In this document: in pieces, positions 15,290 through 54,509 of the stretch
Numbering within the stretch: position 1 is the stretch's first letter
Layout of the letters: every line of letters starts with the position of its first letter
Source of the DNA: a virus
IMG/VR virus record: IMGVR_UViG_3300020049_016021
DNA: 64,000 nucleotides
Reading direction: 5' to 3' (one strand)
Made by a program: the position numbers and the translations under genes
The notes under the pieces: model-generated
Databases searched by the model: none
Told to the model about the DNA's origin: nothing
Seen by the model: only the letters and a program-made list of their open reading frames with translations

Positions 15290-15517
15290 ATGATAACTGT
15301 AATCTTTTCGGCTCTTATTGGGGCCATCGTAACGAGAACCGTTGATAACTTTCCAAAGATTGTCCGGTCTCTAAAAACATTGACACAAGAACCCGTAACC
15401 ACGGTACAAGAAAAAAAAGCACCTTCTGGGGAACCAAGTGCTGGAGAACTAGTTCAAACAGGCATAAAAAGAACGAAAAATGGATATACGGCCGTCTATG
15501 TGAGTCGTGAGAGATAG
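15290..15517 (+). CDS. Small hypothetical membrane protein
   Basis: 75-aa ORF; overlaps PolA start by about 38 nt. Confidence 0.3.
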   Translation: MITVIFSALIGAIVTRTVDNFPKIVRSLKTLTQEPVTTVQEKKAPSGEPSAGELVQTGIKRTKNGYTAVYVSRER

Positions 15518-17366
15518 TAAAATCTCTCCTTGCTCAGGGCTAGATATTACTAAGGCAATACGGGAATGAACTGGCCCTATTGCTCTAGACACCGAGACTA
15601 CCGGAGGATTAGATAACATCTTAGCTCAAAAGGTAGTATTACTACAGTTCGGAAATGCGCATGTGCAGTATCTTATTGACACACGTGTAAAAGATCCCAC
15701 CAAGCTCCTAAAAGAAATAATAAAAAGACCCATTATTGGGCACAACCTGAAGTATGATTACCAGGTCATAAAGCAGAACTATGGGGTGGAACTGAGTGAT
15801 GTATTTGATACTATGCTAGCAGAGCAAGTCTTGGACTGCGGAAGTTTTGAGGGCATACGAAAAGGCTGGTATGGACTAGCCCAAGTTTCTCATAGGCGCG
15901 TTGGCATAGATTTTTATAGTAGCCAAGGGAATTTATTTCTCCCTACGATAACAAAAGAGCTACAAAAATCATTTACAAAACAAGGTGACACCCCGTTTAG
16001 CTTAGCTCAATTATTATATGCGGCTCTCGACGTTGAGGCCACATACAGAACATATCTGGCTCAACAAGTACAAATAACCAAGGATAATCTCGAAGCGACA
16101 ATCGAGTTAGAAAATGAATATTTGAAGGTTCTGGGAGATATGGAATTAGTTGGTGTGTTTCTAAATCAGAAGCAATGGTTAGACAATTATCGTCAAACAT
16201 TGCTTGCTACTGAAAAGCTTAGAGAAATGCTTTCTGCTTATGCCCCCGTAAACTGAAATAGTTGGAGACAAGTTCTACCAATAATGCAGTCTTTCGGGGT
16301 GGACACATCCATCATAGACAAAAAGACGGGCGCGATAAAGGAATCTGTTGCTAGACAAGTATTAGAAAAGCAGATAAAGAAAGATCCCATAATTGGTAGT
16401 TACCTATCTTATAAGGAGTCCGCGAAAGAGTCGTCTGTATATGGGGAAATGTTTTTAAAGCATGTAAATCCCATATCCAATAGGGTTCATTCTTCTTTTA
16501 TGCAGATAATGCGTACGGGTAGGACATCCTCTACAAATCCGAATATCCAGAATATAAAGCGCGGCGCAATTTACCGCTCCGCTTTCCAAGCTGAAGAGGG
16601 AAATGTATTTGTTGGGGCCGACTTCTCAAACATTGAAGCAAGAATTCTAGCTGATAAATGTGGAGATGTAAACTTTAGAGCTGCCTTTGATAATGATGGA
16701 GACTACCACTTAGCGACCGCCAGATTGGCCTTTGAAGATCCAACCTTACAGAAGGATTCAGAAGAACGAAGGTTAGCTAAGAATATTAACTTCAGTATTG
16801 CCTATGGGGGTGGTGCTGGAACACTTTACGAAAAGTATAGGATTCCTTTGAAACGAGGAAAAGAGCTGATAGAGAAGGTTTATAAGGGATTTCCAAAGCT
16901 AAGACCCTATTTCGATAGACAAGGGCAACTCGCAAAAGAGAATGGGTACATAGTGGCAAACGAATTAACTAAGAGAAGAAGTTATATTCCTTTCTTTGAT
17001 AAGTATAAAACCATGAAGGCCCATATAGAGACCTTTACACGGAGAGGTTGGGAACCACATCCACATGTGGTACGAGATTGTAGAATGTTAGAGGCAAAAA
17101 TTCAACGTTGGGCACAGAACATACCGATCCAAGCTACTGCTGCTGACGTAGCAAAGCAAGCCGGAATATATTTAAGGCAACGCTCAAAAAAGATTGGATT
17201 CGATATTGTGATATTTGCGCACGATGAATATGTAGTGGAATGTGCAGAGTGGAAGAAAAAGGCTGTAAGTTTAGCGCTAGAGCGCTCTTGCAGCGAGGCT
17301 GTTAACAAATTCTTAACCATAGCTGTTCCCGCTGTTGCGGAAGATAGTACACACTGAAAAAAATAA
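15480..17366 (+). CDS. polA: Family A DNA polymerase with 3'-5' exonuclease domain; contiguous only if four in-frame TGA are read as sense
   Basis: Exo I motif LDTETTGG upstream of the track ORF start; exo II IGHNLKYDYQV; Pol motif B RRLAKNINFSIAYGGGAGTL; motif C FAHDEYVVEC; in-frame TGA at 15501, 15567, 16254 (between the two track ORFs, same frame) and 17355; TAA at 17364-66 in TAATG overlap with the next gene. Confidence 0.85.
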
Positions 17367-18463
17367 TGACATTAGAAGCCACGTTTATTTACATTATGGT
17401 CGCCGGATTACTTGGCGTCGTAAGCTACTTTGGATATCAAAAAGCAAAAAAAGATCCTGAAAATGCGGGGCTTGAACCAGGAGTAATTCTTGTTCGTTCC
17501 TTTATTAAATATTCTCTGACATACTTTATTGTTTTCCAGGCTTCAGCTATGCTTGCAGAAGCAGCTCTCCTGGGTTCAGTTCAAGAAGAAAACATGAACG
17601 TAGCTGCTCGTATGGGCAGTCACATAGCAATGGCAATGGTAGGCGCTTTTGGTGCCTTCGCCATGACAAAATACTTTGGAAGTTTCATATCCGTAATAAC
17701 AACAAAAAGACCCCTAGGCATTTGGCTGGGCTTGGCTAGCACAACTTTTATGCTGAGTGGTGTAAGTTTGGTTTTGACCATTGGATCGCCTATCTACAAT
17801 CTTATGGCTATGACAAATGCTCTTCATCAGGGAGTTCAACTTGAAGTATGGTGGGCAAGTTTTCAAGTTGGTTTGGGATTTAAACCTCAAGCGTACTTAG
17901 ACTATGTGATAGCGTTGAATAAGCTTCCGGCTAACTATGCCCCATATGATTCCCTTAAAACGGGTATGGTGACTTCATTAGGTTTGACAGCCTTTCACAT
18001 CCTAATTACCTTCTGGGAAATCCTAACGGTATTAATGCTGGCTCTAACCCATAAAGGTGTAAATCATGCTTTGCTAGGCAACTTATTTGATTTGGTTGTT
18101 GATGCACCCGCTAAGGATTCAAAAGCAAAAGATGACGCAAAGGACAAGAAGCCAAAAGATGACATAACTGAAGAAGCAAGGAAAGCAAAAGATTTGATAG
18201 GTAAACTGTTGACTTATGCTGAACTTGATAAAGATGTTGTTGCTTCATTTTCTGAGAAACTGTTTCCGTATATTCATGACAAAAGCACCCAACAAAATAC
18301 GGTTGCTAACTTAGCGGAAGCTATGGATTTGCTCGTGAAATATGAATCAGCAAGAAACTCGTCTCCTCAAGCTAAGGCTGGTTTACGTACTCAATTTCAA
18401 GCCTTGGTTACTAAATGGACTAAGGGCGGCTTAACTCTGCCTAAAGCAGCAAAAAAGATGTAA
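17366..18463 (+). CDS. Polytopic membrane protein with Lys/Asp-rich C-terminal region
   Basis: 365-aa ORF with several hydrophobic helices; ends ...PKAAKKM-TAA containing the A_AAA_AAG heptamer. Confidence 0.55.
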   Translation: MTLEATFIYIMVAGLLGVVSYFGYQKAKKDPENAGLEPGVILVRSFIKYSLTYFIVFQASAMLAEAALLGSVQEENMNVAARMGSHIAMAMVGAFGAFAMTKYFGSFISVITTKRPLGIWLGLASTTFMLSGVSLVLTIGSPIYNLMAMTNALHQGVQLEVWWASFQVGLGFKPQAYLDYVIALNKLPANYAPYDSLKTGMVTSLGLTAFHILITFWEILTVLMLALTHKGVNHALLGNLFDLVVDAPAKDSKAKDDAKDKKPKDDITEEARKAKDLIGKLLTYAELDKDVVASFSEKLFPYIHDKSTQQNTVANLAEAMDLLVKYESARNSSPQAKAGLRTQFQALVTKWTKGGLTLPKAAKKM

Positions 18464-18541
18464 GCCGAGGAGAACCTAGTTGTGAGTGGTGTGGGGGAAT
18501 ACACGGCAATATTGGCCTTGAATTAATCCACACCTTCTCAC
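18451..18541 (+). promoter_or_regulatory. Candidate programmed -1 ribosomal frameshift site (A_AAA_AAG) with downstream stem-loop
   Basis: Slippery heptamer 18451-18457 in the zero frame of gene 17366..18463; the -1 frame is open into the zinc-ribbon gene; hairpin GTGAGTGGTGTGG(18483-95)/CCACACCTTCTCAC(18528-41). Confidence 0.3.
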
Positions 18542-18555
18542 GCCCTCCTTGGCTT

Positions 18556-19173
18556 GTGGGATTACAAGACGAATGCCAGATTTGTCATACAATAACCTGG
18601 CTTGGTTTTGTTCGTGATAAGTACGCTTGTTGTGAAAGCTGCTATTACAGAATAGAAAAACCAGAAAAGATAGTAACGAGAATATGTGCACGATGCTTTG
18701 AGACTAGAAACTTAAAGAAGACATGCAGTAATTGTTCTTCGGTGATTGAAGAATATGCTAACAATAGTTTACTTTGTGAAGACTGTAAAAATCTTGAAGT
18801 ATTTCGTCCTGCTAGCACAAAAGTGCAAAAATGCCTGGAATGCGGAATTCTGTCTCACCTTAACAATGAGGGTCTCTGCATGAATTGTTTTAACAGGTAC
18901 AACGTGCAACCACCAAAACGCTGCAAGTCTTGTGGAAAACCTGTCATACGGGGAGCCGCTTTTTGTGATGAATGTGTTAGCTTAGCTTCAAGACGTACAC
19001 AAAGAGTGTGCCACGGCTGTGGTCAAACACTGTCAACTGCGAGCCAATATGATTCATTCTGCCATAAATGTAAAATAAATTTAGAGCGAGGAGTTTGTAC
19101 AAATTGTTCTGAAAACACACTTGTTGCAGATAACCACGGTTGGTGCACAAAATGTCAAGTAGATAATGGATAA
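18556..19173 (+). CDS. Multi-zinc-ribbon protein (about 13 CxxC motifs)
   Basis: GTG start at 18556; the frame is open 30 codons further upstream with no start codon and includes another CxxC (CEWC). Confidence 0.55.
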   Translation: MGLQDECQICHTITWLGFVRDKYACCESCYYRIEKPEKIVTRICARCFETRNLKKTCSNCSSVIEEYANNSLLCEDCKNLEVFRPASTKVQKCLECGILSHLNNEGLCMNCFNRYNVQPPKRCKSCGKPVIRGAAFCDECVSLASRRTQRVCHGCGQTLSTASQYDSFCHKCKINLERGVCTNCSENTLVADNHGWCTKCQVDNG

Positions 19174-19183
19174 GAGAGATAAG

Positions 19184-20350
19184 ATGCAGGCTGAAGCTGT
19201 TCAGGCCTGAAAAGATGCAAATAACTGGGGAACCATATTAATTTATACGGGAGGCGGCAAAACTCGTTGTGGACTTATGGCTTTTGAAGCTTTAGGAACA
19301 CCACGAACATTGATAGTTACTTCTCGTAGACCAATATTGGACCAGTGAAAAAATGTTGTTGTTGGGCCCGATGTCACATACATGTGCTTAAAGAGTGCTT
19401 ATCTCCATGAAGGTGAGTATGATTTAGTTATAGTAGATGAGGTGCATCGGGCTCTTTCAAAAGAGTACAGAAGATTGTTCACAAATATAAAGACAAGGGC
19501 TCTTTTGTGTTTAACCGCCACACTACCAGAAGACCCAGAATACGTGAACTTTCTGGAGAAGATTGCCCCAACTGTATACGAAAAAGAGTTATCTGGTGCT
19601 ATTGACGAAGGTCTTGCTCCAAAGGCTCAAATATACAATCTAGCTGTTCCCCTTAGTAAAGAGGTTGCTGGAAAGTATAAAGTTTTTGATAGTAAATTTA
19701 CTCAGAGCATAATAAAACTTACTCGATTTAGGAGTGAGCAACTCCATCTTAGAGAGTACCCATCTATATTTGAATTAGCCAGGGCAGCCCAACACCGAAA
19801 CTTTGAAAAAGAGGTGCAAATGGCCTGTAATGCTTACTGGGCAAGTATGACTATGCGCAAGCAAGTCTTGTACGAAAATCCTGCAAAAATAGGCGCGGTA
19901 ATTTCAATATTGGAGAAATATCCCCCGAGTGCAAAGTGGATCATTTTCACAAAAACAACTGCCTTTGCGGAGAAGATAGCTGCACAAGTACCAAACAGTG
20001 TTGTGTACCATTCAAAGCAAAAAACATCCCAAAGAGAACAAGTTTTAAAGGCTTTTAGTGCTGGGGATAAAACAAGATTAATTGCTGTTGACGCTTTAAA
20101 TGAAGGCTTAGATGTGCCAAGAGTATTTGGCGGAATCTGTGCTTCAGGAGTATCAACGTTATTAACAAATCGTCAACAGCTAGGCAGGATTATTCGCCCT
20201 GAAGAAGGTAAAACGCCTATATTTTTTAATTTGTACACGATCGGAACTGTGGAGAAGACTTGGATAGAGAAAAAATTCATCAATTCTAAATTAACACCAA
20301 TATGGCTAAACCATTTGGCCGAGGTGCAAACCGGCTTACGCAGTATATAA
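19184..20350 (+). CDS. SF2 DEAH-box helicase; two in-frame TGA read as sense
   Basis: ATG 19184; motif I IYTGGGKT, motif II LVIVDEVH, motif III LTATLP, motif VI QQLGRIIR; in-frame TGA at 19208 and 19346; the track only shows the C-terminal 322 aa. Confidence 0.8.
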
Positions 20351-21471
20351 GGATGAGGGGAGCATTGCTTCCGAGCCAACTCGACGAACACCGAGTAGGT
20401 CAGGCTTGTGAAGAGCAATGTGTTTTTTGTTTAAATCAGCATACTTATATTCCTTTATTTCATTACCCTTTAGGTGGTGGTGAAACACCAGAACGTGTTC
20501 CAGGAGTATTTATCTGTGATGATTGTGATAATAAAATCGAAGCAAAACTAAGAAGTGGCACAAATACGAAAACCATAGGTCTGTTTAATGACATACAAAC
20601 ATTTGTGTCGCAGGGGGTTTTCCCTGACCACACTTATGAGCATTATCAACACCTAAATGAGGAGATTGAGCCAAACGCAAAGGAAAAAAAATTAGCTTGT
20701 ATTTTCTGTAAGGTGCAACAACGTATAAATGTATCTGATCCTTACACGAAGGAGTTTTGTCACGAGATAGATACTCCTATGGGAGCCACTCAAAATTGGC
20801 TTGATGGTGGTAAGGTGCTTATATGCTTGTCTTGTGTAAAACTCATTGAGGATGAATTGAAGCAATTCAGAGTAGGAACTATCGAGGACTACGTAGAAAC
20901 ATTTACAGAAGTAGCTATTTGTCCTGTTTGCGATGGAAACTATTTGATTACAAACTTTGAAGACGAAGTTAGGACGCAAAATGGTACCTTATTTAAGCAT
21001 ATGTGTGGAGCTTGCACGTATGATCTGTTAACAAGTGATTCACGAAAACTCCATTATGCTGGACACGATATGCGCCAACTATATAAGGCGCGTACTGATA
21101 ATTTTGAAGCTAATACAGCGGTTATTCGTCATAAGGAAGAGATATGTGAATCTTGTGGACAGTACATTCTTATTGATCTTACATTGATTCCAGAATATGT
21201 AGTGGCACAGTATTTCGACACGGACAGTAATTACATTTGTGAATGCTGTTCAAAATATGGTGGGGGATATCCACCGTTAGTTATGAAACTCGAGGCACAC
21301 ACCCTACGCTTTTATAAGGACGATACTGGAAAATTTACCCTGGTATATTGGTCAACTGGGGACTCAAAGGTTCTTTCTGTAAGAGAAAACGTGTCGCCAG
21401 AAATAGCCAAGCAAGAACTTTTTGCTCTTTTACCTTCAACCAGTTTAATTGATGGGAACCTTGATGTATAA
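20302..21471 (+). CDS. Multi-zinc-ribbon protein (8 CxxC motifs)
   Basis: 389-aa ORF with paired CxxC motifs. Confidence 0.5.
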   Translation: MAKPFGRGANRLTQYIRMRGALLPSQLDEHRVGQACEEQCVFCLNQHTYIPLFHYPLGGGETPERVPGVFICDDCDNKIEAKLRSGTNTKTIGLFNDIQTFVSQGVFPDHTYEHYQHLNEEIEPNAKEKKLACIFCKVQQRINVSDPYTKEFCHEIDTPMGATQNWLDGGKVLICLSCVKLIEDELKQFRVGTIEDYVETFTEVAICPVCDGNYLITNFEDEVRTQNGTLFKHMCGACTYDLLTSDSRKLHYAGHDMRQLYKARTDNFEANTAVIRHKEEICESCGQYILIDLTLIPEYVVAQYFDTDSNYICECCSKYGGGYPPLVMKLEAHTLRFYKDDTGKFTLVYWSTGDSKVLSVRENVSPEIAKQELFALLPSTSLIDGNLDV

Positions 21472-27280: not shown

Positions 27281-27982
27281 ATGACAAAGCACGACAATCT
27301 CTCCAATTTTGTTGGGGAGTCTTGGTTAACACCTTTAAGTGGGGCTTTCGATTACTTCAAGGAGAAAATCATCCCTTATCTAAAGGCCGAAAAGGAAAGG
27401 CTGGAAATACGTAACCTGGAATCACCGGAGAGCAAAAAACAGACTATATATCCTTCTACTCTATCAAACGTTTTCAGGGCTTTCAAAGAGACCCCATACA
27501 ATACCGTTAGAGTAGTTATTATTGGCCAAGATCCTTACCACGATGGTTCCGCTACAGGAATAGCTTTCGACAATTCAAAAACGAAACGTCCCTCCCCATC
27601 TCTTAGGAATATTCTGAAGGAGATAGTGAAGGATTGCGGGGAAACCCAGGCTACAGAGAATGTGTTGAGTTATTTGGAGCACCTTCCTTCACAGGGGGTG
27701 CTCCTTTTAAACACAGCATTAACTGTTGTAAGCAAGGAACCCTTGAGTCATGTGCCTATATGGGCTCCCTTTACCGAGGAAGTCATAAAGGTACTAAATA
27801 AGCGTGACCAGATCGTATGGGTACTTTGGGGGACAAAAGCTCACGCCTTTGAACCAAAGATAAATCCACGCCATGTCATAGTGAAGGGAGCCCACCCATC
27901 TCCTTTCTCTTACCATCTATTCAAGGACAAGAGGTTTTTTGAAATAATTAATTCAAGTTTAAAAAATAAAATACGATGGTAA
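27281..27982 (+). CDS. ung: Uracil-DNA glycosylase (family 1 UNG)
   Basis: Motifs VVIIGQDPYH, LLLNTALTV, VWVLWGTKAH, GAHPSPFS. Confidence 0.85.
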   Translation: MTKHDNLSNFVGESWLTPLSGAFDYFKEKIIPYLKAEKERLEIRNLESPESKKQTIYPSTLSNVFRAFKETPYNTVRVVIIGQDPYHDGSATGIAFDNSKTKRPSPSLRNILKEIVKDCGETQATENVLSYLEHLPSQGVLLLNTALTVVSKEPLSHVPIWAPFTEEVIKVLNKRDQIVWVLWGTKAHAFEPKINPRHVIVKGAHPSPFSYHLFKDKRFFEIINSSLKNKIRW

Positions 27983-28704
27983 AATTCGATCAGAAAACAC
28001 GGGCAAAGTACCCGAACATCAACCAGCAGATGCTCAACCCTGCTTACAACATAAGTGGCTGTTTTGAGGACTCACGATTTCCTCCAGAGCACATTCAAAA
28101 AGTCCACATTAATCCGCCACCAAGTGTTCGCCTTACTCAAGACAAAGAGGCGCTACTTCTCCATTTAGCAGCAGAAGGATACGTTGTCCCAGATCATGCA
28201 CCAAAAACAGCCTTCATTACTGATGGAATGTTCGATCTTTCTTCTTTTGAGGAATTCTATGAGTCTTTGGAAGATTTCATCATTATGGAAATAGCCGAGT
28301 CTTTGGCAAAAGAGATTGGGGACTACGCAGAAATTCTGGCTCTTATAGGAGCAGCAGAACTTCCGGGGGGATCCTTGTTGAAGCTTCCACAGGGATACCA
28401 AAGTGCGCAAGTGCACGTTATCCCAAACGCGGCTGGTAGAGCATTAAATCTGGGAACAAAACAGACATCCAATGGTGTGCTATCACATAGTATTCCGTCT
28501 GCTTGGGACAGGGATGCCGCCTTTGCTATGGCCAAAAACAGTGTTGATGAAATTGGATTGGATTATGGTCATGTGACCTTGATTCAGACGCCGAAAGAAG
28601 AAATGCTGATAGCCAACATTGAAACCATGCTTCGCCCCAGCGACATTATTGCTATAAGGGGCTATGCAGACATGCTAAACAAAGCATTGAATGGAAAAAA
28701 ATAA
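27976..28704 (+). CDS. Hypothetical protein
   Basis: 242-aa ORF. Confidence 0.5.
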   Translation: MVKFDQKTRAKYPNINQQMLNPAYNISGCFEDSRFPPEHIQKVHINPPPSVRLTQDKEALLLHLAAEGYVVPDHAPKTAFITDGMFDLSSFEEFYESLEDFIIMEIAESLAKEIGDYAEILALIGAAELPGGSLLKLPQGYQSAQVHVIPNAAGRALNLGTKQTSNGVLSHSIPSAWDRDAAFAMAKNSVDEIGLDYGHVTLIQTPKEEMLIANIETMLRPSDIIAIRGYADMLNKALNGKK

Positions 28705-41700: not shown

Positions 41701-42226
41701 CTTCTCGTTTTTGAATCCTGAACCCAATATTTTTTTGTATTAGGCCTTCTATAGTAGCTGCTTTATTTGCTACTAAAACCTTATTTAATTCGGTACTGCC
41801 TGCCATATAGACAAAGTTATCAGGACCAATTACAGATTCTATTGGAGTTGTACTTAGAAGATATGAAAACATCTTACCAAAGTTGGCCGCAATACCAGTA
41901 AGAGAGATACCAGAATAGGTATTATATCTTATCTGTTCTTGAGCACTGAAGTCTGTTAATTGTCCTTGTGCTGTTAAAGCGGCATCAACTTCTTCTTGAC
42001 TTTGAAAAGCCCTAACTTCTTTGTTATTTTTTTGGCTTTCAAGAGCAGCCCAAACTTCTGATAAAGAAGGTTCTTGAGCGTATGGATCATACCGTTCTAT
42101 TAGTGTTTCAGCAAGAGGAGAAAGGGGCTCAGTACTTAAGCCCCCTAATCCATTCTCGAAAACAAACGCCCTAAATTCCTCTACAGAGAATTCTTTTTCG
42201 TTTACAATTATTTTACAATCTAGCAT
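38780..42226 (-). CDS. Large virion-associated protein (1148 aa), function unknown
   Basis: Uninterrupted 1148-aa ORF; ATG overlaps the stop of the 4095-aa gene. Confidence 0.65.
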   Translation of the reverse strand: MLDCKIIVNEKEFSVEEFRAFVFENGLGGLSTEPLSPLAETLIERYDPYAQEPSLSEVWAALESQKNNKEVRAFQSQEEVDAALTAQGQLTDFSAQEQIRYNTYSGISLTGIAANFGKMFSYLLSTTPIESVIGPDNFVYMAGSTELNKVLVANKAATIEGLIQKNIGFRIQKREAVRLKDIFKTTVNGTTISGFSRLDEKQKNVFETIDTIINLAIDNVKMQKLHILGITNNNANLFLTFLGFGFPLNTVSRIFKTPAVTALSEGGRWTSEKLRKELVKLTDELIKDDNWQNRLYELYPEQADKLIGAVQKQKGISMAFGRLSIETSTLDSIYIGKTRGIDRLISDLVVLSNLRKLIPVGEELFTHSQVYSSLRGLPNKRWKVDSVIGKIERYTKFADESNRGAELQKVLVETLAETFRESAEYKAALEESEETAEKLLKERLDKYKENPDLSDFYFAQIRATFVNKILRRSLSRKIKPSDNSAFENSTPLRLPHVLAAYRALLLYKKILENSFFVYNPIVQGFINRFLNETNIFTPFDQLEKTDEVSKELIKYLSADLDFDVNGVPFSTSVPSDTVYHTDKKSYYGKEAWGQKFISSAGKVLSIDSSNEFLNALEIITNRDKVTKLQIVADKVSDEEMLELIREDFEKLIHNKEVIPGTETSWADFARDLFKYSLISDGMYFERTGLSLVFPAEWSIGYSNAQDARLEAVIPKDDARSGINLSLLKDAFTFQMLRSRPDLVRRNDTAPMTIANVKMSWGNKKIFHGTANYADKKIHFDLKFNVPFSDNSPRFIRLYGNEVYMLKNTPGSEYTYYVQLTEPGGSPHYRFSINDIDTAFSLDKLEFNGRIVNRSNIQGSTLTEAIDGYILEKGDTVAAFNRQDASGTELTIYEVTHARQTDTEYRYTLRFKSKVPLTKTEVAPAIRSLAGSFTSSRTGTTVVVDKIKEIREKALKRNNVIVSTSEIEEGIVLPLSHITKDSTPEEVQAAVNKSITLLNEIPSSANVYVEKELLEPLTTWPNARRALARLVYKKTGFSDRYLPATLNHDTRFSEAQRRVELNIPRALGSVEVTFNEETKEHTIPSLREFSDVEVGQVVYLKENTYGYITDVTSQTFSVLMFDSKTFSAIEDGKLTMEEFTEVYKKINNC

Positions 42227-45200
42227 TTTATTTTAATTAAACCGGACTCTGCGAGTTTCTTATAGAATGAAGAATTAATATCATCAGTTAATAAGTTGGA
42301 AAGCTCTTTTTGCATTCTATGCCTATTGCGCACAACATCTTCAAATGAGATAGGAGTTAAAAGATCCTTTCTATTTTTCATCTCAAGAAGATTAGTTGCA
42401 AAGTTATGAACAATGTCATTTTTGGCAACTGTTTCAGTTGTTGCATTTAGTTTTGAAAGCTTATCATTTAAATCCTTTAATTTGGCATTCAGCTGGCTTC
42501 GTTCTGCATAGGTAGCCCCCGCCATCTGACTTGTTAACAGATTGATTTGTTGACTGATAGATACTACTTTAGACGTCAAATAGTCACGCAATTTTGCTCC
42601 TTCAATAGTGATAGGTTTTCCATTTAGGTAACCATAGGCTTCCCCTACTGGAGTTACAAGATCAGGATTATAAACATGGGAAGGATCAACGCTACTTAAA
42701 ATAGTATTTAAATCTAGCGCTTCCTTCATATCATTGTAGTCTTTTCTAATAACAAACAAACTGTCTACGTCATAGTCAGAACCATGGTAGTATACTATAA
42801 GAGAAGGGGCGATTATAATGTTTCCTTGAGAAGCCGCAGACTTAGGATAAAAACCAACTACCTTCATTGGTAATAATGAGTGATAGTTAGTAGTAGGAAT
42901 CCTAAAACCAACTAAGCCATTAGAGAGCCCAAGAACATCACCAACAGTCATATAAGCAGCATACTCTTCAGGTAAGATTACTTCGCAGTAACCCTCTGAG
43001 TCGCGCCACTTTAGATTACGCATTTCTTTCGAACCGTCTGGATTAGTAATTTCGACTGGTCCAAGATCCGCTTGTAAAACTAACTTTGAGCCTTTAAATC
43101 TGAATCCTGTTGTTGCGGCTGTTATCATGGAACCTATACTAGAAACTACACGATCAGCTATTAACGGGAGATTGAAAGAAGCTTTTTGTTTTTTGGATTC
43201 TGTTTTTAGAATTTCATAAACATCCTTTGCTCCATCAAGACCGTCTAGGTTTTCAATTAACTTTGCCCTTAATAAGTTTTCAGAAGCAGCTGTTAAAGTG
43301 CCCTTGCTAGTTAGCCTTAAATCTCTTGAGACTTGCCTAACACCATTATCTATGATTGTAGCACTTGCTAAGTGTAGATCATAAATTTCATGTGTATTCT
43401 CTCCGTTTGTGTCCTGCATAGCGGTAGCCTGTGAAGGGGCTGCTACGCTTGTTTCTACACTGTGGGCTGGGTTCAACTGGAAACGTAGATTCTCATTGTT
43501 TAATGTAATGAAAGATCCTTCTGATATACTATTCGTATGTATTCGACCATCCTCTCCAAGTTTGGCTGGACTAGCAGGTCTACCAATCTTTACACCAGAT
43601 TTGAAAACCATCTGATCTGCTTTCGCATTACGCATGGCCTCTCTATAGGTGGCAAGATGAGGAAAGGCAGCAACAAGTTCGTCAGTCAAGACTTTAACAG
43701 AATATTTTACGGCTGTTGGAACACCCTTTTCTATGGAGAAATATACGGGCTTTAATACTGTATCAACAAGAGCATCAGCTCCATAAGCAGAAGCAATCTT
43801 TTCATAGAACTCTGGTAGCATAAATCCTTCAGCATCTGAAGCTTCGTAGTCAGCTCCGTAGGAAGCATTGATAGCAGCTTCTAGGTCTTCTGGAATCTCT
43901 CTTACTAAGTCTTCGACAACCAATACTTTGGATTCTTTAGGGAGCCCGTGTACAGCATCTATTAGCATAGTGTCCCCAGTAGCAGTTACTATCTGAATAC
44001 GTTTTGTTTGTTCTTCCTTGTTAGCGAAGAAAGCCTCGTCACCATAAATAATTTGAGATAAAGAATACTGGTTTATTATGAAATTAAAGTAGAAACTTTC
44101 TATTAGTTTTTCAACTATTTGATTTCTTTTTTCAAAATAATTATTTAATTCTTCATCACTCATGTTACGTTTCCATTCGGGAGCAGTTCCAATATTCAGT
44201 ATGCTAGCCGCAGCTTTTAAATCCTTGTCGGAAATAGGTACCTTAGCATTTTTCTCTGGTAATCTGATGAAAGCAGGCAATAGTTCTGCTACCTTAGTAG
44301 TTACGTGTTTCTTTACTGCCTCAATAGCTTCAGTAGTTGAAAGATCTTTTGTTGAACCAGTCAGTCCCGCAAATCTCCAAGATTGGTAATTCTTAGCATA
44401 TGTTGGATTATTTCCAAGTAACTTTGGATCAGGTCTATTTTTTTGAGCGTTGATAATAGCTAGTAAAGCTTTATCTATCTGTGCTCCTTTTAATACTGAA
44501 ACCTCTACATTAGCAATGGTCGTTCTATTTGATGGAATAGGCAGAGCTTGATAGTATTTTCCTCTTGAAGCCGCTACTCTAGAAATAAAATTACCTACTA
44601 TGTGGCGCTTTCTAAAGTCATTTAAATTTTCTTTGCGAAGGAATTTAGCGAAGCGCTCATTCCCTTTTTGTTTCCATGAATCATGTTCATTATACGAGAA
44701 CAGCGTGTTTAGACCGTTAAAGAAAATATTAGAAGATAGGAATGGATCGGTGCTTTTCACTTTTCCATTTTGTACAGAAAAAGTATCAAAACTCTTGGCT
44801 GGTCGTCCCTGTAAAGCATTTTCGAGACTTGTCAGTAGATCTGTCTGGTAGGAAGAATCAATCCATCCAAAAGCTTTTTTACCGTCGCCTCTTGTATAGG
44901 AGTGAGTTTCACCTAAAGCAAAGTGGGAATTCAACATATCTGTTAATTCATCAATAAAGCTTCCCTCATTTTCTAACAGAGTTTCACCACTTCTAGCTTC
45001 TTGATATTCTTCTTCAGTTTCGTAGTCTGTCTTCTCTGTTGCATAACCAGCCTGCAATTTTGGAGCAACAAGTTTTAAACGTTCAAAAAATAACTCAACA
45101 CTCCTAGCAGAAGCATCTGTTATTCTTTTATGGACATCTATAAGATTAAGAAACTCCTTTATAAGGCTTCTTTTCTCTTCTATTGTTTTTACATTTGTAT

Positions 45201-48200
45201 TATAAAGTTTGTCCATGAATTCCTGAGGAAAGAGTTTCTTTTCCTTGGCCTCAAGACGGGTTTCTACATATTTATTAAAGAAGAAGCGGAGATTAGCTTC
45301 ATGGGCTCTTTTACCTCCACCTGCTTTTATTATGTAGTTTATTACTTTATAAATACCAAAATCCCAACGCTCAATGAAGGCTAATGGCTTACTTTTTCTC
45401 AAGGATGCTACAGCTGCCAGTAAGCTCTTTAAAAAGTCCATATCTTCAAACAAGTAGTATGCTTGTCCTACTGAACTATATGGGACTCGTACCTTATTAG
45501 CTAAGAGCTCAATGAAGCTGTGTGTAGTGCTTTGTTGATGTTCAACACCATACTTTGTAGGAAATTGCTTTGCTGTATGTAAGGTTACTTCTTCAACAGA
45601 CGAACCATCTAAAGAGTAAATCGCATACACCCCCTTAAAGGTTGCGTCTTTTCTAAAAGAAATATTCTTTAGTCTGTTCGGAGCATCTAACTTTGTCTCT
45701 ATGTCGTGAAACAAATTCAACATAGCGTTTCCTGTAGCCCAACGGATATTAGGTTTACTTCTTATTCCTTGGAATTCTTTAAAGTTGTGTTTCAAAGCTT
45801 CCAATGCCCCTCTTATAGAATGCTTAGGAATTGAAGCAATACGTTCTAGCAAAAATGAATAGGCCCTGTTTAAGTCTGCATAATCTTCTTTACCGTTTTT
45901 CCAGTACTTTATTGTGATTAACCTTTGCTTTATTGCGCCCGTTAATTTTACGTGAGGATCAACAAGCATAGAGTCAAATGTCTCGGCTCGTAGGGCATCA
46001 AGTTCAGAAGTTAGCGACTCTGGTGTGTCAACATTTTCTTCGTTACCTTCTTCTACTTCTGCTGGAGCGCCTTCTAAGAGAGCGGCTAGTTTAGCTTCTT
46101 TCTCTTCTATATCCTTTAATTTAATTGCATCCAGTACTTTCAGAACAGCTCCTCTAGTTTGTGTTTGTCCAAAGTAGTGATTTACAAGCTTTCTCCAAAG
46201 ACCTCCATTTTTTAAGATCTTTGCGAGCGTGGCTCTAAGCTGAGCAGCTTCTTCCTGCGTATAAGTAATGCCTGCTGAAAACTTACTAGGACTTTCTACA
46301 AAATCCTTCATTCGTTCTACTACAGACTCAAGAATTTCACTTTGACTCAATACTCGAGTAGTCGGCCGATTCCTTTGAATTTCAGAATAAGCAGCTAAAA
46401 TAAATGTTTTTGCTTGATGATATTCTGTGTAAGAATTAAATTCTGAGCGCAGATTCATCGCAGCTCTTTCAACTAATGGTGTCTCTCGTTGCTTAAAATA
46501 GAAAGCCTTGTTATCTATCAGATTAAAGAAATTCTCTACGCTGCTTAGATTATTATAGGTAAATCCTAAAAGACGTTTCAACTTATTCCAAAGAATCTCA
46601 AAGATATTAGATGTCTTTGTTTTGACAAATGTCTCAAAACTCTCGGCTAATTTCTCTTCTAATTCTACAACCCCTAATTCCCCATAAACCTCACGAGCAA
46701 GATTTAAAGCCTGCACCTGTTCAGCTGGAGTAAGGTATTCCCAAAATACTTTGTGAAATAATTCGTGTCTTACAACTCTAGAAGAGATCTTACCATTTGC
46801 TAATCTAGCAAAGCTAGTTATCCCGTTTTTATAGAGCCCCCAGACAGTTTCCCCTCTAGCATTGACAAGTTGCCCGTATTCCAATATTTGATATAATTCT
46901 CCTTTCTTGTTAGAGAAGAGGCTTTTCAAGAATTGAATAGGTGTTTTTCCTGTGAATCTACCCACGTAATTATCAACATCTACGTCGGAAAACTCTTCAC
47001 CAAGATTTTCACCTAAGAATCTCTTTGAACGTTCAGTATGAATTGCTTCCAATAACTTTGTGACCCCTTCCATGGGATCATCAGGATTTATCGAAAGCAC
47101 CTTATCTCTATATTCGAAATTAGATTGGAATACATCTTCGAACTCTTCAGCTGGTGAATCAGATAATGCCACCAACTTCTCTAAGTAATCCGAGAATCCA
47201 GTAGGAACATCTAAACTTTCAGCATCAAAAGCCTGCACAGTTGGTAAGGCAGAACCTTCTCTTGCTTTTTTTCTAAGAGCAGAGCTAATAGGTATTAACT
47301 GGTCAAAGATGTCGTAGAGATCTTCTAGCTCTGTATAGGTTATACGCTCGGTTAATCCAGCCTGCTGTGCAAGTGTGTTGTAGTGATTTATAACTTCTTG
47401 TAATTTTTGTCTTACAATAGCTTCGTCAGCTTCAAACTCATAAATCAAGCTTTCTAAGTCATTATCAAATCTAGCTCTATCAAACTTCTTACCTGAATAA
47501 TAGTCCGTCCGTGCAAAGTCTGCAATCGTAAATACCTCTTGTTCATTAATAGCATTCAAAATTCTCGTAAGAACAGAAGCTCTAATGAAGTCTCTAGAAG
47601 CAACGTCGCCTTGGTTTCGTCCTGTATCTTTGACATCTAAGGATGTTTCAAGATCTGCTTTAATATTATCGAGAGCAGTGCTTTCTTGTTTTGCGACGTC
47701 CTTTAGGGCAGTGATTATAGCAACATTTTGTGTTACATATAATTGGCTTTGAGCGTGAGCCTCTCTATATTTTTCGACAGCTTCAATTAGCGAAATAGCT
47801 CCCAAACCGCTAACAAATTCCCCAGTAGCCTTCTGGCTAAATTCTTTTGTTATGGCTTGTTCAATAGTTTTAGTGCTTGTTTCCTTAGAAAACTCCTCAA
47901 TCCTTCTTTTCAATCGAATTAGTTCAGAGCGCTCTACTCTTTGTTGTTCTTGCTCAAGTGGACTTGTTACTCCAGCTTCTAAGGCAACATCTATGACGGT
48001 GTGGCGTACTCCTGTAAAATGTGTAGTCACCAACTCTAAGGGTAGATTCTCTAAGGCTGTCTCAGCGCTCACATCAAAACTCTTTGGTAGAGGAGTTCTC
48101 AATCCAAATCCTTCTGAAATATTACTAAAGGTGCCTGTTTTATCCTGTCCTTCTAAGAACACATCCTTTAAGTCCTCTAAGCTTATTGGAGAAAGGTGTT

Positions 48201-51200
48201 TATTTCCTGGAGTCTCTAAGAGCTCATTTATGAAATGAAATCTTGGTGTGCCGGCTTTTCCCCTTCTTACTAAAGAACCCCTATAAGCTTCTAATCGGTT
48301 TAGTAGCGCAGAGTTTATTTTTGGATTATAGGCTAATCCTTTCTTCCTAGTAAATTTAATAGGACCAAGCAAACTGATACCCTTGGTATCTTTTACGTCC
48401 TTCTCTTCATCTAATACTTTGTAGTCTCTTAGAATTATATTCTTACCATTATGTGTTGTAATTACTAAATTCTGACTACCAATGGAGTCCATTATTAGTT
48501 GAGCTTCTCCTTTATAGGATCTTCTCTTACCAGCTTCAATATTACCATGCACCAAGAAATCTAACTCGGATGCAAGCTCTAGTAGTTTCTTAGGAATCTT
48601 CTTCCCATCAACATCGGGAAACAACTTATTTAGAGCCGGCGCAGGAGATAATTTCAATGTAGCCTCCTTACCTTCAACAAGAGCCGTGTGTGTATTAGAA
48701 AGGTGTGTGATAAGCTCGTGAAAAGGAAAATACTTCTCCCCAGCAATATCCACCATGCCCCCTAGTTTTAATGTAGAGTAAGCTCCTGGTAATTTACTAC
48801 TTGCCAACGCTTTCTCAAATTGTTCTAGTGTCTTTATGAATTTTACAAGGGGCTCTATATTTGTGGTCTTTGTATTTAAGACTGTTGGAGCGAGACGAAT
48901 GAACTGTGTCTTTACAACCTTACCAGTTGTAGTTCGTAGTCCGTGTATCATCATATAAGGAGGACCTATTTGAGGTCTATCCTCTATTGAGGTAGCATCC
49001 GGAAACCATCTATCAAGATCCTTTGCAGACTTAAACACGCCTATAGTGACATGCTTTGCAGGATTGGCTAGTATTTCTGAATAGTTCTCTAATTGCTCAT
49101 CACCACTAGGACCCCACATCTCATTCAAATACTTTCTCAGAAGAGGGATATCTGTTATCTTTCCACTATTAGCATCTCTTGCAAGAGAGGAAAAATCTTC
49201 CGTTGGCTCTTCACCGTACAGGTATTGGAGAGGTGCACTGCTGGCTTGGTTTATGATCTCTATACTATCAAGACCAGGAGACCTAAATACACCTGGAGTA
49301 GCTGTAGAAGAAAGTGTTGAGGGTTGGAGTGTTTGTAGGGAAATCCCTAAATTTTCCTCTAACCTCCTATTTTCAGATTCTCCTAATACTGCTATTCTTT
49401 CAAAAAGATCACCTCCAAGTTTTCGTAGAATAACGTATCTACTTGCTGGTGTACCATCCTTTTTTGGAGTACGGTCTAAGGCGATTTGAAGCACTTCTCC
49501 AGGAACTAGTGGGTTAATGCCGTCTCTACCTTGGTCATGCTTAAATGTTGCATTAGTTGGATGAAGAAGTCTATGGGCTCCTTGCACAACGGGCTGCTGT
49601 GGTGGAGTATCTATAGGAATATCTTCTTCCCAAGTTATATCTTCTTCCTCTTCTTCTTTCTCCTTTTTAGGCTTACTTTCTGGTACTGGAGCTTCTTCAG
49701 AAGGAACAGCAACATCAGTTAATGCTTCTAAAATCTTTATGCGTTCATCTAAAAGCTTTAAGACTTCTTCAGCTGTTCTTGTAGTTTTTGGTTGTGCTGC
49801 TATAGTTGGGTCAACTATGTGGGAAGCCTTTGGGACATTAGACAGATGTGCATATTTTCTTGCTCTTGATAAAGCTGTATATACCCACTGATTATATACT
49901 TCTACGTTCTCAAAATTTACCTGATCCCCTTTAGTAATGTCCACATAAACCTCGTCTCTAACAATACCTGCTGCTTCCGGTACCATCAGAACAGTAGCAT
50001 CCGGAAGAGAAGCTTGATATTGAGCTTGCTTTGCTTTACTTCCAACCAGTATAATCCTTGTCCTAGCCGGATTGCTTCTTACAGAACGTTTGTAACTATC
50101 TACAATAGAGTTGCCTGTTTCTGCAAATGAGCCCTCTATCTCTTCAGCTGATAAGGAGATATCCTTTGAAGAAGATGAATTATGTTCAACTACTTCTTCC
50201 TTACTTTTGTATTGATTCTGAAGATCTATTAACTCATCTAAGTCTGCTCTGTAAGTAGCCGATAAGGGTGATATTTGTAGCAAGTTCTCTACTAAAGGTA
50301 ATCCCGTAACAGCTGTTATTGGCCTTCTTCCTGTCTCAAATGCCTCTTTTACCGCTTTATCCCCATTATGATACTCAGTTTCAGTAGCTGAAAAGTTATC
50401 ATAAAATTCAAGATCTAGTGCTGGTCTACCGACGTTTCCTGGTGTTACTTGGTTTGGGTCATATAGAAACAAATACTTAACCTGTGCCTCTTCGTTTAGA
50501 GTATTGTACTTAGCAACAGCAGAAGCAAACTTGTTTATGGTTTCAATAGTAAGACCCCCAGCTTCGTCTATGATGATGGTTCTCACCTTACCTAGAGTAT
50601 CGGACTCTAGTTTAGCTATTATTTGTTCAATAGTGTTGGTGTTGTCAGGATTACCAAGACTTTCTGCAATGTTCTCGGCAGCTAGTTGATATGGAGCCGC
50701 TGAAATAATTTCCTCATCCTTTAGGCCTAGCACGTGCTTCAACAACTTAGATACTACTAAGGATTTTCCTGCTCCCGCTGGAGCTCTTAAAGCTGCGCCA
50801 GCAGAATATAATTTTCCTGAATTTTTTGGGGTAGAGAAGAAAGTAGCCAATTCCCTAGCAACCCTGATTTGTGCTGAAGAAGGTAGTGGAAGTAGCGGAT
50901 TGTTCTTTATGAACTTCCTGATCTTTGAAAGAAATTCAACATGGTTAAATCCACCTTCAGCGGCCAATTGAATATGTTGCAGAGCTGTTAACTGCGCCTG
51001 TAGTTTTACAAGAGCAGCTAGTTCTTCCTTCGTTGCGTTACCAACATAGTTACCAAGAGCAGTATTAAAATCAACAATATCATAGTTTTTATTAAAATTG
51101 ACTAAGGGATCTATATTCTGCTTTGGTAGAGGATTTAATTTCTCCTTAGCCTCTAATATACGTAGTACTTCTAAAAATCCGCGACTAGGATTGTCTAATA

Positions 51201-54200
51201 TTCTAACAAGAGATTCATCAGTTAATCTTGGCCCAAGTCCTGTTGTCCAAAGCAACTTCATAGAACGTAAGAATTCTTCAGCCTTTTTCCTATAAGCCTC
51301 TTGAATTTCAATAGCTTTCTTAGGTTCTTGAGCTAGTGTATCTAATACCGCCATTGAAGTTAATTCTGGATCTAGAACATCTTCAGTAAGGATTGGCGTT
51401 AGTTCATTGGTTGCCTCAGCGTAGAATAAGTTCTCCTTTGTATTTTTTAAGTCCTTGTTCTTAAGATTCTCCTCAACCAAAGTTTTTATAAGTCTTAGTT
51501 TTGGAAGTAGGATAGCAGCATTGCTTTTTATAAGTTTACCATTGTTACCAAGGGAATCAAGATTTATTTTCTCTAGTGCTTCAAGATGAGCTATTTGTTT
51601 CTTTACTGCCTCTAGTGCTGTGTAGTCTTCTGATATCTTTTCACCATCAAATTCACTTACCTCAACAATCCGTTCAGCCGCTTGAGTTATTTCTTTTGCA
51701 GCGAGCTCCTTAGCTTCAATATTGTCTACGAAATCAGGACTTGTTTTTCTAGCGTCAAGAGTATCGAAAGTTTTCTGTTGGTCCTTTATCAAAGGTGCCG
51801 CAGAACTCTGTAACGCTTTTATATTATCATATTCATCAAGCAAAGCTAAAATGCTATCAGGTAGTTCATCTGCTTCCATTTCTAGAAGCTCTTCAACAGA
51901 GATACCATTTGGTAGTTTCGCTAAAATAGCTTCTTCTTCCTTTTGCAGAGTTTCAGCCACTTCTGCTATCTCATTCTTCAATAAGTCTATCTCATCTCCG
52001 TACATAGAAAGATCTTCTTCCTGAAGGGTTTGAGTTATTTTATTTAAAGATTCGATTTTATCAGCTAGATCCTTTCCTGTATTTGACAGCCTTACTGTTG
52101 CCGCTAATACGTCTGATTGAAAGTAAGTCTTTGCAACCTTTAACTTCTTTTCAGTTTCAATAGCTGTGGCCCTTTTCTCTAGGAAACTATTAACAGTTTT
52201 GTCAGTAGCTCCTTCCCCCAAAGATAAAGTCTTTAGCCCTTCTCGTACTGTTCGAAGTCCACTAAAATCTTTATTAGATACAGCGTCTTTATAGGCTTTA
52301 AAACCTGTGCTAGGTTTTATTAGCTTCGTATAAACTTGTCCCAGTTCTTCCAAAGCTGTTTCAGCTTCTTTTTGCTGGGTTAGAAGATTAGCAAGCTGTT
52401 GCTCATTGAGGGCATCCTTTGTTTTAAACTTACCAAGAGCATCTATATCACCAGCGTTGAAAGCAGTGGCTATTTCTGAAGCCCTAATTGGGTCCTGTTG
52501 CCACACTGCATTTATTTCTTTACCAATTTCCTCGGATAAAGCTTTTAGATTTACAATCCTACCACCAACATTAGCTGTGTAAGCTTTTAAACCTCTTAAT
52601 GTAGTCTCGTCTGTAGGCGATAGAAGTGAATTATTTACTTGTAAAAAGTTTTGCTCTAATCTTTCAATATGTGCTTTCCAACCATCTACCTGTTCTTGTA
52701 GTTCCTTCGCTGTTGAAAATCCCATTGCCTGGGCCTGTTCTTCTGTGGCTTGCTGTAAAGTTTCTAACTTCTGTATAAGCTGTTCTGTAGTGCCAGAGTT
52801 GAAGGCAGTTTGGGCCAGATTGTTTAACTTTTCTAGCTGGAAATATTTTAGTTTTAATGGATTAGGATTTGGTCTGCCAGCTTCTAAATCAAATAAATTA
52901 TCTAATTCTCCTTGATAGGTGATGTCAGCGGCCAGTGCGGAAGCTTTTGCCATATCCTTTTTAGGTAGGCCATCATCTCCCAATACTATAGAAGAAGCTA
53001 TTTCATAGTTACCATCCTGATCTGCTCCATACTGAGCAGCCAATCCTTGGTACTGTGTTTCATCAATCTTCTGCACCTGTCCATCTATCTCATTAAAATA
53101 CTCTTGTGTTCCGTCTTCTTTTGGCTTGGCTACCAGCTTTCCTTTTTTTGCAGGCGTACGCTCTATAACATCAGTTGAGAAGAAATCAGTATAAGCCGAA
53201 TTCAACCTTGTCTCGGCGTCTTTTTGACGTTGACGGTAATTTCTAGATTGAGAGACCGATCCTACACCAATTAGATCCGCAACAATAGATTGGCCACCAC
53301 CTATAATAGCTCCAAGACCAGCGGCCTTTACTCTGTCTGGATCAGCGAAATCCATTTCTAAAACATCTTTAATATAAGCTTTAGAAGCGTCTAGAAAAGA
53401 ACTATGGTTATGGGTAGCATCATTTGCTTTTTGAATTGAGTACTGAAGATTTTCTTCTAAGCCCTCTCCAAAAGTTTGAGTGATAATTGACTTTGCAAAA
53501 TTAGCATAGGAGTTGCCTTGGTCATAAAGTAACTTTTCAACAGCAGTCAAAGGAGCCTTGGCCTGAACAACCTTACTCGAAGATTTTGCAAGTCCTAGTC
53601 CTAAGTCATTCATCCTAGTAGAAGTAACACCAGGTTTGAATATAGGTTTCACAAGTTTTGTGAAGAAGTTGTTTGTAACTCCAGCCGTAGCCATGTTCAA
53701 CCAAAAAACATTGGTTAAAGACTGATTAGCTTTATCAGCTATTTGTTCGTCAGTTAATTCATTTTCTCCACGCTGTCTTGCGACCTCCAGTTGCCTCTTT
53801 ACTTGATCCCTAGAATCAATTCCCTCAAGAGCAGATTCATTTACAGTTAAAAATGTGTTTAATGTTAGCTCGTCTATATTACTAGCTATCTTGGCCAGCT
53901 TCTGACTACCCGAATTAAATAGGACATCTCTAAATGACTTTCCTTTTGCTAAAGCATTGATAACCCTTGAGCCTGTAGCTGCTTTTGCCAACAAGCCTGT
54001 TAATCCAAAGCTCTGAGTTAAAAAAGAAACTGTTTCAACATTAGCCGTAGCTAGTTGCCCAGGAGAAGATAGTTGATCCCAAAAGCTTTTATCATGGAAG
54101 TTTGCCTCTTGAAAGTGCGGAAAATGCTCAGTACCCCAGGTACTGATTGCCTTCCCCATATCCAAGAATGGGTTATGTTCAAATCCAGAAGCAAACTCTC

Positions 54201-54507: not shown

Positions 54508-54509
54508 AA

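Follow-up and report, generated by a model that had tools for sequence, protein, structure and literature searches.

The viral DNA analyzed here, a stretch of 64,000 nucleotides from the IMG/VR virus record IMGVR_UViG_3300020049_016021 (the window; all positions are counted from its first nucleotide), carries a gene for a membrane protein whose end overlaps, in the -1 frame, an open reading frame (ORF) for a Cys-rich protein with multiple zinc ribbons. This locus very probably uses -1 programmed ribosomal frameshifting (PRF), by which part of the ribosomes that translate the membrane-protein gene would continue into the zinc-ribbon frame. A fusion of the two proteins through such a shift had been put forward in an earlier reading of the window (the original prediction), and the comparison with relatives supports it in 17 of 17 lineages. 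The sequence comparison establishes the signal, its codon register, the open -1 frame, the coding capacity upstream of the available start codons and an enrichment of structure downstream; from these we infer the slip itself and, further on, its efficiency, the membrane topology and the biological role.

The probable slip site and its conservation

The membrane-protein gene ends in GCA (18449), AAA (18452), AAG (18455), ATG (18458) and TAA (18461-18463), and the sequence bears out the claim that the slippery heptamer A_AAA_AAG stands there in the X_XXY_YYZ register of the gene. The -1 frame is closed upstream by a TAA at 18442-18444 and its ORF ends with the TAA at 19171-19173. The two ORFs share 19 nucleotides (18445-18463), with the heptamer inside the overlap. 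Upstream of 18445 the -1 frame is closed, which confines any frame change to these 19 positions. The first ATG, GTG or TTG of the -1 frame is the GTG at 18556, 33 codons past the slip point, in agreement with the earlier description of a frame that runs up to the annotated start without any of these codons. Counted from the slip site the -1 product holds 14 CxxC pairs, versus 13, an odd number, after the GTG; both the figure of 13 for the annotated zinc-ribbon gene and the pair said to precede its start (CEWCGG, of which CEWC forms the pair) proved correct.

In-register canonical heptamers of all types number 109 per 20,204 codons in the genome of the window, ten of them being A_AAA_AAG. The genome is A-rich and a single in-register A_AAA_AAG is not rare. 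The heptamer of the window would lack significance if taken alone; its significance comes from its conservation across relatives. DNA was recovered for 17 distinct lineages of the membrane-protein family (window included), which range from 59% down to 23% protein identity. A canonical heptamer stands in register 0-4 codons before the 0-frame stop in all 17, and in all 17 a Cys-rich ORF lies in the -1 frame, open across the heptamer and overlapping the end of the membrane gene. The gap between the heptamer and the stop is 0-1 codons in 15 of the 17 lineages and 3-4 codons in both lineages with C_CCT_TTN. The -1 ORFs comprise 171-365 codons and encode 21-49 Cys residues. Relatives that lack the heptamer, or that have stops in the -1 frame, were looked for as grounds for rejecting the prediction and neither was seen in any lineage.

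The conservation of the heptamer is not simply that of a Lys-rich tail. Three lineages (L028, L029 and L031) were picked as apparent exceptions, having C-termini without Lys-Lys, and they carry other canonical heptamers instead, with pattern and register kept (Table 1). Moreover, only 20% of the K[KN] dipeptides genome-wide form an in-register A_AAA_AAN. The codon before the AAA specifies Ala, Ser, Pro, Gly or Ile, depending on the lineage, and its third base is always A. The seventh base of the heptamer is always G or C, except for the C_CCT_TTA that the lineage list gives for L029, while AAG makes up 41% of the Lys codons and AAC 33% of the Asn codons. The slip-site pattern is thus kept beyond the needs of the encoded amino acids, as expected for selection at the level of the nucleotides. 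At the protein level, K[KN] or G[KN] lies 0-3 residues before the C-terminal end in 36 of the 42 family proteins retrieved. Alignments of the whole family had diverged too far to be scanned for a pattern. Scans with the single proteins P0024 and P0037, which together with P0011 and P0042 are the exceptions that stand outside the heptamer counts, found nothing.

The same fusion protein would result from transcriptional slippage, in which a stutter of the RNA polymerase lengthens the A6 run by one A and so generates a subpopulation of mRNA with the two ORFs in frame. The A6 run is present in the window and in 13 other lineages, yet it is short, as runs below about 8-9 seldom allow efficient transcriptional slippage. 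In addition, no base is repeated more than three times in a row in L028 (GGGAAAC), L029 (CCCTTTA) and L031 (CCCTTTG), which nevertheless retain the tandem-slip pattern in register, and the strict codon register together with an RNA stem-loop 3-6 nucleotides downstream are features of ribosomal and not of transcriptional slippage. We regard slippage of the polymerase as very improbable.

Four assemblies obtained independently from different samples (JGI metagenomes 3300020036 and 3300056850, SRA runs SRR26425193 and SRR26424809), at 99.0-99.96% identity to the window, share exactly the same junction, which is therefore not an assembly artifact. An indel introduced by sequencing or assembly, or a recent frameshift mutation that has inactivated a truly single gene, comes to mind because the frame changes at a homopolymer, a classic site of error and mutation, but such an event would hardly account for the same two-frame layout, with neither ORF disrupted, in 17 lineages as distant as 23% identity, nor for the lack of any in-frame version among 40 representatives; its probability is practically negligible. 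These representatives are the homologues of the membrane protein, 264-387 amino acids (aa) in length, that were retrieved at E <= 0.001 in a full HMMER search of 1.84 billion representative sequences. A word-indexed profile search with the zinc-ribbon alignment gave two matches and no in-frame fusion, and was uninformative.

Queries of IMG/VR with single proteins gave no close relatives, and the GTDB genomes contained no relative. Among 50,697 GenBank phage records, blastn and tblastn searches with the locus, with the membrane proteins of the window, P0035 and P0025, and with the zinc-ribbon ORF gave no match; the PolA part alone matches, at about 32% identity. Literature searches yielded no earlier description of the slip site.

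Table 1. Features of the junction in the window, and the heptamers found at the corresponding position in each lineage
Feature	Position	Strand	Basis or remark
0-frame gene, 365-aa membrane protein	17366..18463	+	ORF list, AlphaFold2, hydropathy
-1 frame ORF, 242 codons	18445..19173	+	would be decoded from 18457 after the slip; predicted 238-aa multi-zinc-ribbon extension, 14 CxxC
Slippery heptamer A_AAA_AAG	18451..18457	+	X_XXY_YYZ register of the membrane gene; equivalent canonical heptamer in 17/17 lineages
0-frame stop TAA	18461..18463	+	one codon past the heptamer; base of the stem-loop
Stem-loop, candidate frameshift stimulator	18461..18556	+	fold energy and helix map
CEWC, first CxxC of the zinc-ribbon array	18481..18492	+	upstream of any canonical start; C9/C12 invariant columns
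GTG, called start of the 205-aa zinc-ribbon gene	18556..18558	+	first base paired in the outer helix
Heptamer A_AAA_AAG			6 lineages: window, L018, L006, L007, L026, L030
Heptamer A_AAA_AAC			8 lineages: L012, L014, L015, L022, L024, L011, L027, L032
Heptamer G_GGA_AAC			1 lineage: L028
Heptamer C_CCT_TTA			1 lineage: L029
Heptamer C_CCT_TTG			1 lineage: L031

The start of the zinc-ribbon array and the downstream structure

Between the slip site and the first start codon the encoded protein sequence is conserved, an invariant CxxC included. More specifically, C9 and C12 of the window product (the CEWC) correspond to invariant CxxC columns in the alignment of the -1 products of 13 lineages (A3), and because of this the annotated GTG start truncates a conserved zinc site. 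Most lineages share a further N-terminal motif, C-L-x3-C-x-H-Y-L...C-x2-C, whose first residue lies 3-14 residues past the slip site. The distance from the slip site to the Cys residues varies from 3 to 14 residues through indels, and the -1 relation is held in all 17 lineages. Among 15 lineages, 11 have the first ATG, GTG or TTG of the -1 ORF behind the first conserved Cys, as far as 89 codons downstream in L024, and the other four (L007, L012, L014 and L026) have it before the first Cys. Independent initiation can therefore not yield the N-terminal zinc site outside these four. In the window no canonical start codon is present between 18445 and the CEWC and, by eye, no near-cognate one either; directly upstream of the GTG at 18556 (ACGCCCTCCTTGGCTT) no AGGAGG-like Shine-Dalgarno (SD) sequence is visible by eye. 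This GTG is probably an artifact of gene calling or, at most, a secondary internal start.

The arrangement might still consist of two independent genes, the zinc-ribbon protein being translated from its own start (GTG 18556) and the heptamer arising incidentally where an A-rich genome encodes a Lys-rich tail. Gene callers do annotate separate genes in all assemblies; however, the GTG that they choose in the window drops the invariant CxxC and is partly paired in a stem of -45.7 kcal/mol. A start codon precedes the first Cys in the four lineages just named, but there is none before the conserved N-terminal Cys motif in the remaining 11 of 15, and the -1 relation has survived the indels between slip site and Cys in all 17. 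In-register heptamers are, as said, fairly common (109 per 20,204 codons) and one of them also ends the PolA gene; against a by-product of the tail stand the nucleotide choices by which the heptamer is maintained, with a switch to G_GGA_AAC or C_CCT_TTN in lineages without a Lys-rich tail. Finally, the junction between the PolA and membrane genes, which serves as an internal control, behaves differently. Two separately initiated genes are, all in all, an improbable explanation.

At this control junction the PolA gene ends in TGA AAA AAA TAA, which includes an in-register A_AAA_AAA (17357-17363), and the membrane gene starts in the -1 frame with the ATG at 17366, the two genes overlapping as TAATG. 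In the relatives the two genes stand to each other in frame -1, +1 or 0; the heptamer is missing there, and every membrane gene has an ATG start.

The heptamer at the end of PolA was also considered as a frameshift site in its own right, and was judged to be due to chance as it is not conserved in relatives. Heptamers at two other gene ends in the window look like chance as well: the gene that follows 27281..27982 has its own ATG, and the -1 frame at the end of 27970..28704 closes after some 20 codons.

The stretch behind the heptamer is strongly structured. The 100 nucleotides at the window junction fold with an energy of -45.7 kcal/mol and a z of -5.5; of 200 dinucleotide shuffles, none was as stable. 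The structure is closed by an outer helix of 12 base pairs (18461-18472/18545-18556) and contains inner helices of six (18481-18486/18537-18542) and eight base pairs (18488-18495/18527-18534), besides some small apical pairs. The inner helices (18481-18495/18527-18542) account for the hairpin of 13-14 base pairs at 18483-18541 in the original prediction, which can be retained. The spacer of about 25 nucleotides that went with it cannot: the outer helix begins the structure 3 nucleotides past the heptamer, or 6 when counted to the first G-C pair, and the caveat of an unusually long spacer therefore falls away. At canonical -1 sites of the tandem-slippage type the stimulatory structure lies some 5-9 nucleotides behind the heptamer. 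No T-run follows the stem-loop, a scan for terminators and promoters between the two ORFs came out empty, and an Rfam search at the junction gave no match.

The original prediction had also called for a check of heptamer and hairpin in relatives. The heptamer passes this check in all 17 lineages, the hairpin in part. A downstream fold with z <= -2.5 is found at about 9-10 of 15 junctions and is missing in three lineages, with stems that begin 0-6 nucleotides past the heptamer in most, whereas among 119 control windows taken at these loci the share with such a z is 7.6%. Clear examples are L011, with a perfect stem of 12 base pairs, a spacer of 5 nucleotides and a z of -5.2, L027 (z -4.3) and L030 (z -4.0). 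The stems of different lineages show no sequence homology, and this points to selection acting on the structure itself. As for an upstream stimulator, the window has no SD-like motif within 20 nucleotides upstream of the heptamer, the nearest being an AAGG 25 nucleotides away. Only L006 has such an element, a GGAGG 12 nucleotides upstream of the heptamer, and it does so without downstream structure.

Several observations weigh against frameshifting as the explanation and should be considered together. Significant downstream structure was found in none of L006, L014 and L015, and an upstream SD-like stimulator is not conserved across the lineages. The lineages share ancestry, and plain products of probabilities overstate their independence. 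None of the 40 homologues found with HMMER, all within 264-387 aa, is an in-frame fusion of the membrane protein with the zinc ribbons; such a protein would have been independent evidence for both parts functioning as a single unit. In addition, independent initiation of the zinc-ribbon protein is possible in L007, L012, L014 and L026, as an additional route.

Predicted products and their genomic setting

Under -1 frameshifting, ribosomes that translate 17366..18463 would reach the heptamer, the P site then holding AAA and the A site AAG; at this moment the stem-loop, 3-6 nucleotides downstream, would sit at the mRNA entry channel. A fraction of them would slip back by one base, AAA-AAG re-pairing to AAA-AAA, and resume reading in the -1 frame from G18457. 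The ribosomes that do not shift would read the ATG and stop at the TAA, yielding the membrane protein of 365 aa; those that do would make a predicted fusion of 602 aa, consisting of the membrane protein and seven predicted C-terminal Cys4 zinc ribbons (14 CxxC). The ratio between the 365-aa and the 602-aa product would be fixed by the efficiency of the frameshift. At the predicted fusion junction ...LPKAAKK is followed by DVSRGEPSCEWCGG..., and the predicted trans-frame peptide is ...LPKAAKKDVSRGEPSCEWCGG..., with AAKKDVSR / DVSRGEPSCEWCGGIHGNIGLELIHTFSR as further junction peptides.

The membrane protein has no family in Pfam or PHROG, and a comparison of its AlphaFold2 model (mean pLDDT 87.6) with PDB folds gave no significant match (best E 0.44). 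According to model and hydropathy it consists of about five long hydrophobic helices, a disordered K/D-rich linker (residues 244-265) and a C-terminal four-helix domain (residues 269-351), followed by an unstructured tail that contains the slip site. Judging from hydropathy and the positive-inside rule, the protein would span the membrane five times, its N-terminus outside and its C-terminus inside, and the zinc-ribbon array would therefore be cytoplasmic and tethered to the membrane. The extension itself matches the Pfam family DZR_2 (38.5 bits at a cut-off of 27, E 1.1e-09) and remains just under the cut-off for DZR (27.1 versus 27.3 bits). A structure model of the array built from three sequences reached a pLDDT of 48 and was not used.

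The gene pair is syntenic: in all lineages whose flanks are long enough, it lies between PolA (a family-A DNA polymerase) and an SF2 helicase. Our best guess, and it is only a guess, is that the fusion could act as a membrane-anchored scaffold of this replication module. A fuller version of the idea holds that the frameshift is the sole route to the zinc-ribbon array and that the tethered fusion, made at a set ratio, anchors or organizes the replication machinery (family-A polymerase, SF2 helicase and DnaB-like helicase) at the host membrane. We consider this fuller version doubtful; if true, phage PRF would have products of a new functional class, unconnected with virion assembly and made in a clade that reassigns stop codons.

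Directly after the helicase the window encodes a second Cys-rich protein (20302-21471, 389 aa) with many CxxC pairs, for which no family match was found in Pfam or PHROG. The replication module as a whole is unusually rich in zinc-ribbon-like proteins.

The reading of the stop codons bears on where the 0-frame product ends. The PolA ORF (15468-17366) contains four in-frame TGAs, three of which align with Trp in relatives, and the genome appears to read TGA as Trp (genetic code 4), judging only from this alignment. The helicase ORF (19163-20350) has two in-frame TGAs after its Walker A motif (GGGKT), and the motif itself lies upstream of the ATG at 19382 that is found with the standard code. 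TAA and TAG remain stops, and the TAA at 18461 is therefore a genuine terminator. No tRNA genes were found in the window. The codon for the C-terminal Trp of PolA is TGA in the window, L006 and L011, and TGG in eight other lineages.

Gene calls with the standard code split the TGA-containing genes, among them 15468-17366, 19163-20350 and most plus-strand genes in 1-34300. At all 17 junctions the 0-frame stop by the slip site is TAA or TAG and never TGA, directly after the heptamer in ten of them; this stop may be part of the frameshift signal, or its identity may be no more than a consequence of the clade avoiding TGA. In the sister lineage L016 (OGWF01001727.1) an in-frame TAG occurs in the membrane gene around 785-790 where the homologues have Gln (ASI*EKD versus ASIQEKD), and this lineage may read TAG as Gln. 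Taken with the Trp codons of PolA, the genetic code seems to differ among members of the clade. The minus strand of the window carries a block of giant genes at 34257-64000, of about 630 to 4,100 codons, including an ORF of 4,101 codons at 42220-54525. These contain 0-2 in-frame TGAs, as against the TGA-rich replication genes of the plus strand. Three of the giant genes were searched and gave no PHROG match and only sub-threshold matches in Pfam.

The mechanism is a textbook one, and the advance consists of a new instance and a corrected gene model rather than a new principle. Throughout the clade the locus has been called as two genes in each assembly, and in the window and most other lineages the second gene is called from an internal codon, with loss of the conserved zinc site. 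What the locus really yields is probably the membrane protein of 365 aa together with a fusion of some 600 aa. Nearly all annotated phage frameshifts are those of tail assembly chaperones (PRFect paper, PMC10885494). A deeply conserved recoding site in a gene pair of the replication module that has no cultured representative should make a useful test case for frameshift predictors, and its five heptamer variants and non-homologous stem-loops offer natural variation in the signal.

Comparison with known frameshift systems

The tail assembly chaperone gpG/gpGT of phage lambda is produced by -1 PRF at the slip site G_GGA_AAG. The locus described here resembles it in that the heptamer lies a few codons before the upstream stop and in that a short and a C-terminally extended form would be made at a fixed ratio. 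As with the tail chaperones in general, the signal is conserved across highly diverged proteins and the type of heptamer differs by lineage. The proteins are unlike, however: a multi-pass membrane protein and a zinc-ribbon array, encoded in a module with PolA and helicase instead of a tail module, and there is no sequence similarity. Apart from DZR, none of the proteins of the locus belongs to a PHROG or Pfam family.

With dnaX of E. coli, which encodes tau and gamma, the locus shares the heptamer A_AAA_AAG and a stable stem-loop a few nucleotides downstream. In dnaX an upstream SD-like stimulator, about 10 nucleotides 5' of the heptamer, is essential, and the shift leads to early termination and thus to the shorter product. 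Here, in contrast, no SD stimulator is conserved and the shifted product would be the longer one, by 238 aa. The label "dnaX-type", which the original prediction gave to the heptamer, is apt for it and for the stem-loop, but the site is not a complete cassette of the dnaX type.

A third comparison concerns the insertion sequences IS1 (A_AAA_AAC) and IS3/IS911 (A_AAA_AAG), in which a frameshift joins orfA to orfB of the transposase. The same two heptamers dominate in our lineages, the slip site likewise lies near the end of the upstream ORF with structure downstream, and here too a two-domain fusion would be encoded in overlapping frames. Unlike these elements, the locus has no transposase domains and is not part of a mobile element, but occupies a syntenic position within the replication module of a phage.

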